From contig CP070695.1 of NCBI GenBank assembly GCA_020353515.1, positions 3,456,050 through 3,520,049 of the forward strand: a stretch of DNA of 64,000 nucleotides. Direction: 5' to 3'. This DNA comes from Candidatus Heimdallarchaeota archaeon (GTDB taxonomy: Archaea; Asgardarchaeota; Heimdallarchaeia; Hodarchaeales; Hodarchaeaceae). The translations under genes were made by a program, and so were the position numbers. Positions 33,022 to 40,496 of this stretch are shown piece after piece; position 1 is the stretch's first letter, and each line of letters starts with the position of its first letter. The notes beneath the pieces were generated by a model. That model worked only from the letters and a program-made list of their open reading frames with translations. It ran no database searches and was not told the origin of the DNA.

Positions 33022-34770
33022 TCAAATTATTTCTCCTTGAACAACTTTCTTTTCGTTTGGAGTAATAATATAAAGTGAAAAAACACCCTCATCTATACAT
33101 TTTTTTAATAATTGAATTTCCTTATGAATAGTGATAATTTGATTAAAATATTGAGAAATTTTTGCTTCTGAAGTTGAATCTAGAAGATTTTCACACCAAT
33201 CATTACCTTCTCTTAAATGTCTATAAAACCATCTAAAATTTTGAAATTTCATCTCTCGTGGATATTTAAATTTGATATTGTTATCCAGTAATAATTTGCT
33301 TATTTTATCCTTTAATTCTTCGCTTTTATCCTGAAACCTATGGTAAATCTTCCCCAAGGTAAATAATTTATCTATATCTGATTGAAATTCCATCTCTCTA
33401 ATAATTTTTTCATATTCATTGAATTGAAGAAGTTTGGACAATTTATTACGATATTCTATGCTCCCTGTATCAGAATCAGAGATTAGGGGAATTCGAATTA
33501 AACTAACGTAAGCTTTATCAAAATCCTTACTTGTTACAAATTGTTTTGTATAAACAGCATGACGTAGCCACCATTCAATAAATGACGATTGCAATAGACC
33601 AGCAATAGCATTTAAAGATAAAATTTCCTCTGAATAATTTGGAATGATATTGATTACCGTTTCAAATGTTAGAACGACTCCTTCCCGATCTACCCAAGTT
33701 TTTATGTCTAAAGAATGTTTTGGTTTCGTGTGGTATGAAATTATTCTCTGAGCAATAATTTTGGGGGTTTTCTGTCTCATAAATCTCTTTCTCGGGGTAT
33801 TCAGCTTTAAAAAACTACGAGGGGGTAATAAAAATCCTGGAGCTATATTTACTTTCTCTATTAGAGGATTAAATCCTTTTTCTACTCGATATTTGCTGGT
33901 TAATCCTCGGAAAGCGACCACATCTAAAAATTCATACTTATCACTGTAAAGACGATGAATAATCTTTAATTCTGGATCACTTACTCCCACCAGAAAGTTA
34001 TCTACCATTAAAGCCTCTGAATATGATATGGTACTCATCTGACCAAAATTTTTTTCAATTGGATTCCAAATTCCAGTTTGATATTCTTGATTTTTTGAAT
34101 CTACAATTCCTTTTTTTATAATTATTGCACATTGTTCTTGTAATTGACCAGAGAATTGATTCCCAAGATCAAGAACTTCAACTAACTGATATTCGGTTAA
34201 AAGAATTTTCCTAAACTCACTCCATCTTTTTGAATAAATAATAGGTTTTGGCAAGAGAAAACAGAGGATACCATCTGGTCTTAATAGATTAAGTGATTGT
34301 AATGTAAAAAATACTGAACTTTCAGAATAAATTAGAGAATTATTACCAAAATGGCAGTTTTTTCGAATTCGGATCCATTCGAGTTGTGAATAGAGAGCGT
34401 TATGAGGGGGATTACCAATAATTATATCGAAATTATTCGGTAAGTCTGAAGGAAAATTTAGAAGAAAATCACCCTGAAAAATCTTAATTTTGTAAGAAGC
34501 CTTTTCAACTAATTGAGTTAATTCCTTTTTAGCTATCTTAATCAGAGATGCATCGATGTCAATTCCGTAAAAATTTGTATTTGAAACAAATGAGGAAATC
34601 TGTGGAATCAATGTATAAAAAAAAACTCCCTTACCGATTGCTGGATCTAATACAGATATCTGTCTTGATTTGTTTTGGGGAATTAGATGTATAATTCGTT
34701 CTAAAATTGCTTGTACTAAGGTTTTAGGAGTAAAAAATTGTCCTTTTGATTTCCTTTGTAGATCTTGAAT
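33022..34770 (-). CDS. Eco57I/TaqI-like DNA amino-methyltransferase (NPPH variant)
   Basis: In-frame extension above TTG 34611 encodes RKSKGQFFTP and VLDPAIGKGVF; motif IV reads IIGNPPH; probable ATT start at 34770. Confidence 0.8.
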   Translation of the reverse strand: MQDLQRKSKGQFFTPKTLVQAILERIIHLIPQNKSRQISVLDPAIGKGVFFYTLIPQISSFVSNTNFYGIDIDASLIKIAKKELTQLVEKASYKIKIFQGDFLLNFPSDLPNNFDIIIGNPPHNALYSQLEWIRIRKNCHFGNNSLIYSESSVFFTLQSLNLLRPDGILCFLLPKPIIYSKRWSEFRKILLTEYQLVEVLDLGNQFSGQLQEQCAIIIKKGIVDSKNQEYQTGIWNPIEKNFGQMSTISYSEALMVDNFLVGVSDPELKIIHRLYSDKYEFLDVVAFRGLTSKYRVEKGFNPLIEKVNIAPGFLLPPRSFLKLNTPRKRFMRQKTPKIIAQRIISYHTKPKHSLDIKTWVDREGVVLTFETVINIIPNYSEEILSLNAIAGLLQSSFIEWWLRHAVYTKQFVTSKDFDKAYVSLIRIPLISDSDTGSIEYRNKLSKLLQFNEYEKIIREMEFQSDIDKLFTLGKIYHRFQDKSEELKDKISKLLLDNNIKFKYPREMKFQNFRWFYRHLREGNDWCENLLDSTSEAKISQYFNQIITIHKEIQLLKKCIDEGVFSLYIITPNEKKVVQGEII

Positions 34771-34784
34771 TTTTTTCCCAACCT

Positions 34785-36743
34785 CTAAATCTCTAGCTCC
34801 TCCAACTGTCTTTGAAGAGCGTAAGCTGTATATGTTTTCCCCGTAAGAACATTCCCACTTATGATTATGAAACGATGATCATTATGACGTATTAAATTTA
34901 CAATATCCTGAATTTTTGTGTTAAAATTCGGTTGACGTGATGAGATTCGAATTAAATCATATTCTTTAGGTGTTGATAGAGCTTTTGGATAAGTCTGAAG
35001 TAAATCCTGATAGCGTCGAAAAATGGAAAGATCAGCATCACTCTTTTTAATAGATGACTTCTCTTGGTCACGAGCGTATAAGTTAAGCTTAACCTCGTCC
35101 TCTGTGGCATTCATATTAATGTATAATGGCCGATATTTTCTAAATTTATCGCCTAATGACTCTCTGTGATTTGGATGAGCAGGCATATTAAAATTTGTAC
35201 CATCAAAAATCACAATGAAATTTTTTCGAAGAAGACAAAGAACAAGCCATTTAGCCAAAGAGTAAGTATGTTCATTCTCCCATCTTATATACTCTGGTGA
35301 ACCATTACGATATAGTTTTCTGATGTGATCTGTTGAAACTACACGTACTTTTCGTGTGATGCGCGTTGTGCATTGAGATAATATTCTTTTTAGATTGTCA
35401 AAGATAGGGAAGAGAGTGCGTTTTTGGTTGATTTGAGGATTAATTTCGACTCTTTCACGAAGAATTTCCAAACAAAATCCAATAAACTCTCTTTGAGAAG
35501 CATACTTCTTATTTATCTCTAGATATTGAATAATATCATCACCATTCACTACAAGAGTGTCTAGTTCGATGGGAGGGTGTATCTTAGCTCTTTCTAGAAT
35601 ATCTGATTTGAGTTCCTTTGTTAATCGTTTTCCTTTACGTACTACTTTTTCTTTAGCTTCATAAAACATTATGTAATCGGATAAATAATCTGGTTTGATT
35701 GAATGTTGAAATTTTCTTATAGAATAATTTCTATCTTCAGTTTTTTCCATTATAGAATAAGGAAGAGGAAGTAAGTGTATTGATAAGATATGTGTTACAT
35801 TTGTTATTTCTTTATTAGAAAATTTCATTCGTTTCATAAGCTCTTGAATGCAGACTTCTTGGAATGGAGGGAAAATTTTCTTTGATGTTTTCTCTAATAT
35901 AGGTAATTGATGAATCAATGTAGCGAAGCGTAATCTAGGTGAGGATTCCTTTGGAAGTTTAGAAATGATTTTCATGGTTAGCTTTATTCTGTTTGTCTTG
36001 AGTTCAGGAAGAATATTTTGGAATTCATCAAAACTGAATTCAGGAATTAGTTGATATAATAACCCACTTTCTTCTAATAGCAAGATAGATTTCTGAAAAA
36101 AAGCTCCGTGTAATAATTTCTGAAATTCTGTGTGTATTCGCTCCTTAGCTACCTTTTCAAACACTTCAAAATGGTGAGGAATTGCATTAAGGGTTTTCTG
36201 CTCAATATCAAATCCTAGTTGGGACACAAATCTAAAAATTCTGAGCAAACGGAGTCCATCTTCCTGTAAACGGTCATGTGGATCGCATACCATTCTAATG
36301 GTTTTTGTTTTTATATCATCAATACCATTAAAGGGGTCTGAAATTACACCACTAATAGGATCATATGCAATAGCATTTATTGTGAGATCACGTCGAGATA
36401 AATCTTCAATGATATCTTTCACAAAATGAACCTCTACAGGTCTTCGGCCATCTATATAATCTCCTTCCTTTCTAAAAGTCGTTACTTCAATTGCTATATC
36501 ATTATATAGGATAGTGACCGTTCCATGTATAATTCCTGTAGGTATAACGCGAAAATTTTTATTAAAAAGATTGGTTACTTCAGAAGGTCTGGCATCCGTT
36601 GCTATATCCCAATCTTCGGGGGTAATATCCCCCTGAATTATGTCACGAATGGATCCACCAACAATAAAAGCTTGGAATCCATGGTTAGTTAGTATTTGGC
36701 AAACGTTGATTATTTCTTTTGGTAAACGATCCTTTACCAACAT
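34785..36743 (-). CDS. cca: Class II CCA tRNA nucleotidyltransferase with a C-terminal P-loop kinase-like domain
   Basis: FIVGGSIRD, DWDIAT, EVTTFR, DLSRRDLTINAIA, EDGLR.LR..RF; C-terminal STDHIR, VIFDGTN and terminal GNVLTGKT. Confidence 0.88.
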   Translation of the reverse strand: MLVKDRLPKEIINVCQILTNHGFQAFIVGGSIRDIIQGDITPEDWDIATDARPSEVTNLFNKNFRVIPTGIIHGTVTILYNDIAIEVTTFRKEGDYIDGRRPVEVHFVKDIIEDLSRRDLTINAIAYDPISGVISDPFNGIDDIKTKTIRMVCDPHDRLQEDGLRLLRIFRFVSQLGFDIEQKTLNAIPHHFEVFEKVAKERIHTEFQKLLHGAFFQKSILLLEESGLLYQLIPEFSFDEFQNILPELKTNRIKLTMKIISKLPKESSPRLRFATLIHQLPILEKTSKKIFPPFQEVCIQELMKRMKFSNKEITNVTHILSIHLLPLPYSIMEKTEDRNYSIRKFQHSIKPDYLSDYIMFYEAKEKVVRKGKRLTKELKSDILERAKIHPPIELDTLVVNGDDIIQYLEINKKYASQREFIGFCLEILRERVEINPQINQKRTLFPIFDNLKRILSQCTTRITRKVRVVSTDHIRKLYRNGSPEYIRWENEHTYSLAKWLVLCLLRKNFIVIFDGTNFNMPAHPNHRESLGDKFRKYRPLYINMNATEDEVKLNLYARDQEKSSIKKSDADLSIFRRYQDLLQTYPKALSTPKEYDLIRISSRQPNFNTKIQDIVNLIRHNDHRFIIISGNVLTGKTYTAYALQRQLEELEI

Positions 36744-36895
36744 TTAAAGAAACCCGACCAGGATTTTTTTTGTAAAAGGTCTTTTTAGATATTTTTAGTA
36801 AAAAGTTTTTAACAATTAGTAAGAAGTACTAATTATCTATAGAGTATATTACGAGTATAAAATCATCTAAAGAAGAATAACTTGAGTCAGCAGGT

Positions 36896-39484: not shown

Positions 39485-39512
39485 TCAGACAATTACTTAC
39501 TAAGTGATCGAA

Positions 39513-40496
39513 ATGGCTGAAGAAATCAAATTAGCATATGAGAGAATCAAAAATTATGTTAATAAAACACCAATTATGACCTCTCGTACCTTGAACAGAA
39601 TGATAGGGGCCAAATTATTCTTTAAATGTGAGAACTTCCAAAGAGGAGGAGCTTTTAAATGTCGTGGAGCATTTAATTCGTTACTCCAACTAGATTCAGA
39701 GATCAAAGAAAGAGGAATTATCGCTCACTCTTCTGGAAACCATGCCCAGGCTGTTGCATTAGCATCAAGAGAGCTAGGATGTAAAGCAACCATTGTTATG
39801 CCTAAAAATGCTCCTCAAATAAAAAAGGGAGCTACTCGTGAGTATGGCGCAACAATTGTGGAATGTGGAAATAATCCAGCTGATAGACAAGAAATGACAG
39901 ACTCCCTAATAGAACAAAATGGATTTTTCTTAATTCATCCATACAATTACTTACCCACAATTTACGGAGCAGGAACCGCAGCTTATGAGCTAATTAATGA
40001 AATTGATAATCTCGACATTGTACTTGCCCCAATTGGAGGGGGAGGACTTATTAGCGGAACTTCAATTGCAATAAAAGGTTTCAGTCCTAAAACAAAAGTT
40101 ATTGGAGTTGAACCAAAAAATGCTGATGATGCATTTCGCTCAGTTACAGATAATAAGTTGTACCCATCAATTAATCCTAATACAATAGCTGATGGTCTTC
40201 GAACTTCACTTGGAGAAATAACATTCAAAATAATAAAGAGTAATGTAACAGAGATAATAACAGTAAGTGAACTTCAAATTTTGAAATCAATGAGATTCAT
40301 ATGGGAACGTATGAAACTGGTGGTAGAACCTTCTGGAGCTGTTCCCCTAGCTGGAATTTTTGAGATGAGAAAAGACGACAGTGATTATCTTGAAGGAAAG
40401 CGAATAGGTATAATACTATCTGGTGGTAATATCGATATAACAGATTTCTTTACTCTTTTAGAAAAGGAAATCAAGATGAATTCGCCTAATAATTGA
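39513..40496 (+). CDS. PLP-dependent serine/threonine dehydratase or serine racemase family (no ACT domain)
   Basis: FKCENFQRGGAFKCRGA, HSSGNHAQ, PIGGGGLISG, TIADG, VEPSGA, ILSGGN. Confidence 0.9.
   Translation: MAEEIKLAYERIKNYVNKTPIMTSRTLNRMIGAKLFFKCENFQRGGAFKCRGAFNSLLQLDSEIKERGIIAHSSGNHAQAVALASRELGCKATIVMPKNAPQIKKGATREYGATIVECGNNPADRQEMTDSLIEQNGFFLIHPYNYLPTIYGAGTAAYELINEIDNLDIVLAPIGGGGLISGTSIAIKGFSPKTKVIGVEPKNADDAFRSVTDNKLYPSINPNTIADGLRTSLGEITFKIIKSNVTEIITVSELQILKSMRFIWERMKLVVEPSGAVPLAGIFEMRKDDSDYLEGKRIGIILSGGNIDITDFFTLLEKEIKMNSPNN

Follow-up and report, generated by a model that had tools for sequence, protein, structure and literature searches.

What does an archaeon do with a tRNA nucleotidyltransferase of the bacterial type that carries, behind its tail, a kinase domain whose elements stand in a permuted order? 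The question is raised by a gene on the reverse strand of a 64,000-nucleotide stretch of DNA (the window) from a Candidatus Heimdallarchaeota archaeon (the accession number of the assembly in GenBank: GCA_020353515.1; contig CP070695.1, positions 3,456,050 to 3,520,049), and the positions of all features discussed here are collected in Table 1. The original prediction, made from the letters of the DNA, took the product for a class II CCA-adding enzyme fused to a circularly permuted kinase of the AAA_33/polynucleotide kinase (PNK) type. This architecture, including the circular permutation, is now hardly open to doubt. Considering all the evidence, we regard a CCA-building enzyme with an active tRNA-directed kinase domain as the best explanation of the gene, and a probable one. 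The class II enzyme in an archaeon is already known, and the permuted kinase fusion is undescribed in the databases and the literature searched; to our knowledge, it is the first circularly permuted P-loop kinase.

The first 455 residues have the composition of a class II enzyme. PF01743 (the PolyA_pol head, 120 bits against a Pfam cut-off of 23) and PF12627 (PolyA_pol_RNAbd) are recognised in succession, and the best NCBIfam model is the CCA tRNA nucleotidyltransferase PRK13299 (E 2e-78). In an alignment of 30 orthologues, which are 47–79% identical overall, the residues G29, G30, R33, D34, D44 and D46 of motif A, R117, R118, D119, N123 and A124 of motif B, E161, D162 and R165 of motif D, and E201, R202 and E206 of motif E are all invariant. 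The flexible loop of the fusion (TTFRKEGDYIDGRRPVEVHF) aligns without a gap to the loops of bacterial CCA enzymes; a full-length loop is required for A addition, and it is shortened in CC-adding enzymes. Pfam finds no HD domain in the fusion protein, and the positions of HHDKDV and LLHD in the bacterial sisters are substituted. In the alignment these HD residues are kept in the bacterial sister sequences and lost in all Hodarchaeales enzymes. Judged by its sequence, the fusion is a complete class II enzyme with every catalytic motif and the full flexible loop, in agreement with the predicted class, motifs and lack of an HD motif.

The host needs such an enzyme. Nearly all of its tRNA genes have no encoded CCA and pass straight into T-rich trailers, so that CCA synthesis is essential, and no class I CCA enzyme, the type that the original prediction considered usual for archaea, was found elsewhere in the genome. 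The only other class II paralogue of the genome, with 395 residues (the B paralogue), is at L002:802-1989 (reverse strand, corresponding to about 986.5–987.7 kb of G000:C1); two genes upstream of it is a gene for a Nudix hydrolase-like protein. The flexible loop of the B paralogue is two residues shorter and degenerate and its motif E is without ER, so that CC addition, or some other special role, is possible for it. With its canonical loop, as against the degenerate one of the B paralogue, the fusion is the stronger candidate of the two for the addition of at least the terminal A, and we consider it likely that it adds CCA or A.

The C-terminal part holds the signatures of a P-loop kinase, namely Walker A (GxxxxGK[ST]), Walker B (hhhhD) and Asp-x-x-Arg after beta2, which are all present and invariant or nearly so. 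Their order is beta2 with DxxR, Walker B, lid, beta5, linker helix, beta1, Walker A and alpha1, meaning that the beta1/P-loop/alpha1 unit is at the C-terminus (residues 624-649) and not at the N-terminus of the domain as in canonical kinases. The predicted succession of VVSTDHIRK, IVIFDGTN, a lid and a terminal Walker A was recovered exactly, with each string at its position. A HMMER scan of 1.84 billion representative proteins gave 10 clusters at E ≤ 0.001, and most of them are the same fusion or its fragments. P0043 (195 residues), a cluster that differs, is a genuine member of AAA_33 (Pfam E 4e-23), and its Walker A, GNVGTGKT, is N-terminal. In BLASTP the domain matches it in swapped pieces, residues 13–148 of the domain to 48–185 of P0043 (E 3e-9) and residues 151–189 to 2–41 (E 6e-6). 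In addition, four standalone Hodarchaeales kinases of about 178 residues (L080-L083, from genomes G018, G004, G016 and G017) have STDxIR, DGT, SDAD and a canonical N-terminal P-loop, and they are candidate relatives of the donor of the kinase domain; the search that found them gave no such match in the window's own genome. When a hidden Markov model (HMM) of the natively ordered domain was compared with six canonical kinases, five of them matched in two pieces with exchanged order; the sixth (L082) matched in a single piece (HMM positions 14–133) without the Walker A segment. After the model was re-ordered at domain residue 150, by which the terminal segment moves to the front, each canonical kinase is matched in one piece, for P0043 almost over its full length (HMM positions 5–198, residues 7–184); the HMM E-value for P0043 is 1.6e-8 (Z = 1e6). 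The only PDB sequence match to the domain, PFKFB3, is weak and has the identical swapped arrangement.

Further traces of the kinase family are seen in related proteins. The orthologous fragment P0036 matches AAA_33 with E 0.009 and 16.7 bits, below the cut-off of 27, and the orthologous fragment P0048 has a precomputed match to PF13671. Two orthologue fragments bear the name 'predicted kinase', which in the one with the precomputed PF13671 match is the JGI name, and the features that ESM finds in the domain point to AAA_33, Zeta_toxin and KTI12. A truncated second kinase was considered and rejected. When the permuted domain was sought as a standalone protein, eight shorter matches were obtained, all singletons on contigs of 1–8 kb; the three that were inspected start inside the CCA body or tail and are fragments of the fusion. 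Every complete member found carries the kinase domain fused to a tRNA nucleotidyltransferase.

The structural prediction is consistent with this. The AlphaFold2 (AF2) model of the full-length protein, built from a 30-sequence alignment, has a mean predicted local distance difference test score (pLDDT) of 90 and a predicted template modelling score (pTM) of 0.82, and that of the domain alone (15 sequences) has a pLDDT of 87 and a pTM of 0.85. Five strands are modelled in the domain (466-470, 510-514, 540-544, 597-600 and 625-629), the number of a canonical kinase sheet. The terminal segment consists of the strand 625-629 and the helix 636-649, in blocks with mean pLDDT of 95, 90 and 89, of which 95 is that of the strand's block. 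The only strands available for pairing with the terminal one belong to the same domain, and a central position of the relocated strand is implied by the model. Of the structural support anticipated at the outset, the confident AF2 model was obtained, and the Foldseek match was not: Foldseek found nothing in PDB for the domain model at E ≤ 0.001, because the permutation defeats a sequential aligner. VIA-align (wide) of the domain model against 48,161 PDB representatives brought up P-loop kinases almost exclusively in the top 50, and 136–142 residues are aligned in the best matches. They include PSTK (3a4l, Z 9.7, root-mean-square deviation 2.9, 136 residues aligned), Kti12 (6qp0, Z 8.4), a putative kinase (2rhm, Z 8.1), a polynucleotide kinase (4gp6, Z 8.1) and T4 PNK (1ly1, Z 7.6). 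In those matches the range of the model begins at residue 6–9 and that of the target at 24–32, past the target's own P-loop helix. This offset, read from the ranges, would put D472 and R475 on what we take to be D35 (the general base) and R38 (a substrate contact) of T4 Pnk.

Neither an error of assembly nor chance explains the arrangement. A search with the C-terminal 213 residues gave 33 proteins of about 650 residues that are 46–84% identical there; the full-length gene is present in 14 other species-representative genomes, and the permuted order in more than 30 independent metagenome proteins. Across the 30 aligned orthologues S470, T471, D472, R475, F513, D514, T516, N517, R527, R558, S568 and A570 are invariant, as are G630, N631, V632, L633, G635 and K636 of Walker A, and T637 is kept in at least 90%. 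The same succession of strand, Walker A and helix closes even P0037 (650 residues), which is only 29% identical in the kinase domain. A contig of one sequencing run covers positions 34600-36866 of the window with zero differences, and in another sample from that study short contigs are identical to it across the C-terminus and the stop codon. Since the permuted order is conserved across orthologues and independent genomes, and the read-derived contigs agree with it, the assembly chimera considered as a refutation of the original prediction is ruled out; a chance Walker A is ruled out by the conservation across orthologues. To judge from this pattern, the residues for ATP binding and phosphotransfer are intact and under purifying selection.

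The fusion has a narrow distribution. The permuted domain is present in the window's genome and in 16 of the 21 other genomes of its family, and in none of about 235 other genomes sampled across the phylum; among the genomes sampled, the fusion is found only in this one Hodarchaeales family. Class I enzymes (PF09249) occur in 213 of 251 genomes of the phylum sample, in 1 of 16 of the window's family, in 1 of 10 of the neighbouring family f4 and in 24 of 26 of f3. The corresponding numbers for class II heads are 48 of 251, 13 of 16 (mostly with two copies), 9 of 10 and 22 of 26. In PDB, the best sequence matches are the Planococcus (2e-50) and Geobacillus (3e-47) enzymes, over residues 9-234, far ahead of human TRNT1 (1e-29). 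A quick maximum-likelihood tree was made from 94 sequences (15 fused proteins, 3 B paralogues, 9 from f4, 4 from f3, 2 from other Asgard archaea and 61 bacterial); its bacterial rows were chosen as the top tblastn matches of the query and are not a balanced set, eukaryotes were left out, and a number of branches are long. In this tree the fused proteins are united in a single clade (SH-aLRT 100), which in turn joins the B paralogues and the f4 enzymes (SH-aLRT 97). This larger group falls among Bacillota-like bacterial sequences, and the f3 enzymes are elsewhere in the tree. On these sequence comparisons, the fusion gene is a paralogue, peculiar to its lineage, of a class II tRNA nucleotidyltransferase of the bacterial type. 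Because the fusion clade nests among Bacillota-type bacterial enzymes, to which its N-terminal part is also nearer than to TRNT1, the supposed relevance to the origin of the eukaryotic class II enzymes is not supported, and the gene has no bearing on that question.

A large part of this background has been reported. That Hodarchaeales have class II enzymes and have lost class I was described by Cassidy, Doktor, Betat, Mörl and Prohaska (bioRxiv 10.64898/2026.05.29.728689, dated August 2026), together with the A and B class II paralogues and, with eukaryotes included, a late bacterial origin separate from the Heimdallarchaeaceae/eukaryote-like clade. They also report the addition of CCA in vitro by a class II enzyme of Hodarchaeum, which counts in favour of a CCA-building role. 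The CCA2 A/B paralogues of that account are from the same lineage and are the same genes as the fusion and the B copy. The terms kinase, P-loop, fusion and permut* are absent from its main text, in which the termini are handled as variable and were trimmed (10.64898/2026.05.29.728689). The trimming of the C-termini hid the differing architecture of one Hodarchaeales paralogue, which bears on the reading of the A/B split and on the choice of constructs for biochemistry. A literature search on permuted P-loop kinases returned GTPase examples and unrelated papers only, and the orthologues are named just 'CCA tRNA nucleotidyltransferase' or 'hypothetical' in public records.

As for the function, we assume that the N-terminal part would make or repair the CCA end of tRNA, and that the kinase domain would be an active ATP-dependent enzyme whose target is the tRNA bound to the same chain or to the other chain of a dimer. 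That the substrate of the kinase is RNA or tRNA has about an even chance. Its likeliest single action would be the phosphorylation of a 5'-OH RNA end as by PNK, Clp1 or Trl1, because of the relationship to AAA_33, the invariant D-x-x-R and the structural matches to polynucleotide kinases; as a specific assignment, which draws on sequence and model, the 5'-OH polynucleotide kinase is a tentative one that we would put clearly below even. Alternatively, it could carry out a tRNA-dependent reaction at the acceptor end in the manner of PSTK or Kti12. The bifunctional enzyme of tRNA maturation or repair that was originally suggested is a plausible proposal.

Several points weigh against this account. 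The protein misses the equivalog cut-off of PRK13299 with 264 bits against 290 and is a divergent member by that rule. Pfam AAA_33 gives no match to the native sequence at E ≤ 10, as is expected for a permuted sequence, and the conserved C458, C503, H473, H492 and H523 of the kinase domain have no counterpart in PNK. In known class II structures a long distance separates the tail from the catalytic head; as the kinase comes after the tail, action on the end of the same tRNA would need a fold-back or a dimer. A 5' kinase is dispensable for ligation by the archaeal RtcB. Moreover, the substrate of the kinase could be a small molecule. Finally, in the CCA assay of the Hodarchaeum enzyme the preprint leaves the paralogue, A or B, unspecified (10.64898/2026.05.29.728689).

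Among the other explanations, the one that survives best is a Kti12-like tRNA-dependent ATPase or nucleotide sensor, which would transfer no phosphate and would gate or proof-read CCA addition in response to the ATP level or to damaged tRNAs. PSTK and Kti12 lead the structural matches, ESM places the domain in clusters with KTI12 Pfam matches, and many of its invariant residues are without a PNK counterpart. However, the D-x-x-R pair is invariant in the fusion, and the nearest relatives by sequence are AAA_33 kinases; in T4 Pnk this pair provides the general base and the contact to the substrate phosphate. We regard such a sensor as unlikely.

The genomic neighbourhood suggests another explanation, in which the fusion is not a housekeeping enzyme and belongs to a three-gene module with methyltransferases for the repair or modification of tRNA or nucleic acid, or for defence, and routine CCA synthesis is done by the B paralogue, alone or with the fusion. 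The order methyltransferase, fusion, methyltransferase is kept in 14 of 14 Hodarchaeales loci (L003-L016) despite outer flanks that vary by sub-lineage. The upstream flank is always a divergently transcribed gene for about 860 residues with Eco57I, N6_Mtase and TaqI_C domains, and the downstream methyltransferase gene starts 0–45 nt past the stop codon of the fusion. The pair is seen neither beside the B paralogue nor beside the f4 class II genes. On the other hand, the B paralogue, with its degenerate loop and a motif E without ER, looks like a CC-adding enzyme and not a complete one, the flanking genes resemble DNA m6A methyltransferases (M.BseCI 3e-13, M.TaqI 2e-7), PADLOC gives no match for the fusion, and the synteny is possibly just inherited. 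No nuclease partner of the pair is seen at the 14 loci, and at least ten further weak methyltransferase paralogues are present in the host genome. With this evidence on both sides, a function outside housekeeping is decidedly unlikely.

A kinase whose acceptor is a small molecule, for instance a nucleoside, nucleotide or sugar, and whose fusion serves just co-expression or a local supply of nucleoside triphosphates, is very improbable: gluconate, shikimate, APS and uridylate kinases of the AAA_33 clan do score Z 6–8, but the top structural matches are RNA- or tRNA-directed enzymes, and the domain is joined to a tRNA-binding enzyme in every complete member. A dead kinase in which the terminal GxxxxGKT is a relic or chance and no functional P-loop exists would agree with the failure of Pfam and Foldseek to recognise the native-order domain, but it is scarcely credible for a motif that, with its flanking strand and helix, is invariant or nearly so down to 47% identity and persists in P0037, lies in a segment modelled as beta with high pLDDT, and aligns to the Walker A of canonical relatives.

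If the CCA-building enzyme with a tRNA-directed kinase is taken to its furthest consequence, the fusion could be a self-contained tRNA end-healing enzyme, with a 5'-OH kinase and 3' CCA synthesis in an operon-like module with two N6-adenine-methyltransferase paralogues, having replaced the lost HD-type repair and possibly a Clp1-type RNA kinase; in its entirety this is a speculative and rather improbable proposal. If true, it would be a new system of tRNA repair or surveillance, built on a permuted P-loop kinase, in the archaeal group often placed nearest to the eukaryotes. The Clp1 P-loop (PF16575) scores above the cut-off in three genomes of the class, G022 and G023 (both of the sister family, without the fusion) and G026 (f3), but in none of the 22 genomes of the family with the fusion; it is likewise missing from most other Heimdallarchaeia. 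A distribution of Clp1 complementary to that of the fusion was dropped, the numbers being too small. The covalent union of a CCA enzyme with an intact kinase implies that tRNA undergoes a second step dependent on ATP, and we know of no CCA enzyme with such a step. Furthermore, the fusion is a clean natural case of circular permutation in the kinase branch of the P-loop NTPases, and since canonical relatives persist in the same lineage, one can reconstruct how the permutation came about, for instance by duplication and subsequent truncation.

Compared with known systems, the fusion has the head, neck, body, tail, motifs A-E and flexible loop in common with the Bacillota class II enzymes (Geobacillus stearothermophilus 1MIV, Planococcus halocryophilus 6IBP), whereas the bacterial sisters keep the HD residues of the body and none has a C-terminal kinase domain. 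With the AAA_33/PNK proteins (T4 Pnk 1LY1, 4GP6, P0043 and L080-L083) it shares the fold (Z 7.6–8.1), Walker A and B, TD-x-I-R and SDAD, but its domain is re-ordered, is joined to a nucleotidyltransferase and has extra invariant Cys, His and Trp. PSTK and Kti12, the closest in structure, both act on or depend on tRNA; they have no significant sequence similarity to the fusion, and theirs is the canonical order with C-terminal tRNA-binding domains of their own. The concept of a class II CCA enzyme with a second end-healing activity in one polypeptide is shared with the multifunctional Cca of Escherichia coli, whose second activity is an HD phosphatase/2',3'-cyclic phosphodiesterase within the body, in contrast to an appended P-loop kinase. 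Permutation in P-loop NTPases has a known precedent in the circularly permuted GTPases YjeQ/RsgA and YlqF/RbgA. These are of the TRAFAC class, with the order G4-G5-G1-G2-G3, a GTP-specific NKxD motif and a different cut point and function; as no GTPase family matches the fusion in Pfam and its relatives are kinases, it is not one of the permuted GTPases. Circularly permuted GTPases are mentioned in a passage of PMC6912228.

Table 1. Positions, in the window, of the fusion gene, its parts and the adjoining genes
Feature	Position	Strand	Support
Whole open reading frame, 652 residues: class II tRNA nucleotidyltransferase and circularly permuted P-loop kinase domain	34785..36743	-	
Head (catalytic) domain, residues 25-150, with motif A (GGSIRD, DWD) and motif B (RRDLTINA)	36294..36671	-	Pfam PF01743, E 9e-35; invariant residues
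Flexible loop R91-P102, RKEGDYIDGRRP	36438..36473	-	Alignment; canonical bacterial pattern
Motif D, EDxxR, E161-R165, nucleotide-selecting template	36249..36263	-	E161, D162 and R165 invariant
Neck/RNA-binding region, residues 177-236, with motif E (ERIHTE)	36036..36215	-	Pfam PF12627, E 5e-15
All-helical body and tail, residues 237-455, HD residues absent	35379..36035	-	AF2 secondary structure; alignment
Circularly permuted AAA_33/PNK-like kinase domain, residues 456-652 (~197 residues)	34788..35378	-	
Strand equivalent to canonical beta2, then D472-x-x-R475 (VVSTDHIRK, V468-K476)	35316..35342	-	Invariance; aligns to TDxIR of canonical kinases
Walker B strand IVIFDGTN, I510-N517 (D514)	35193..35216	-	F513, D514, T516 and N517 invariant; strand 510-514
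Lid, residues 548-589, with invariant N554, R558, E561, S568, A570 and Y578 (KKSDAD motif)	34977..35102	-	SDAD common to canonical relatives
Linker helix 607-621, from the last core strand (597-600) to the relocated beta1	34881..34925	-	AF2; aligns to N-terminal helix of P0043
Relocated beta1, Walker A and alpha1, residues 624-649	34797..34874	-	Invariance; AF2; alignment to N-terminus of canonical kinases
Walker A GNVLTGKT, G630-T637, 15 residues ahead of the stop	34856-34833	-	
Divergent Eco57I/N6_Mtase/TaqI_C methyltransferase-like gene, 862 residues	36896..39484	+	Adjoins the fusion in all 14 compared loci
Co-directional N6_Mtase-like gene, ~580 residues, downstream of the fusion	33022..34770	-	Kept at every locus having that flank
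Threonine/serine dehydratase-like pyridoxal phosphate-dependent enzyme, beyond the upstream methyltransferase gene	39504-40496	+	PALP, E 1.5e-75

In the downstream N6_Mtase-like gene (33022-34790, reverse strand), KGQFFTP and the S-adenosylmethionine-binding motif lie upstream of the first ATG, GTG or TTG codon (TTG at 34611). An in-frame ATT is present at 34770. At most orthologous loci a canonical start precedes the motif by a few codons; L014, too, is without one. The start of this gene is either a non-canonical codon or affected by a small sequence error. The host genome is a 4.94-Mb metagenome-assembled genome with contigs joined by runs of 100 N, estimated to be about 96% complete with 7% contamination, and models of small-subunit rRNA find no match in it. 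ARAGORN gives two 'tRNA-Pyl (cta)' predictions, possibly mis-calls, and introns in 22 of the 37 tRNA genes, some at non-canonical positions. This intron-rich tRNA set points to an archaeal host, and the records of the orthologues carry the names Hodarchaeota, Hodarchaeales or Heimdallarchaeota.

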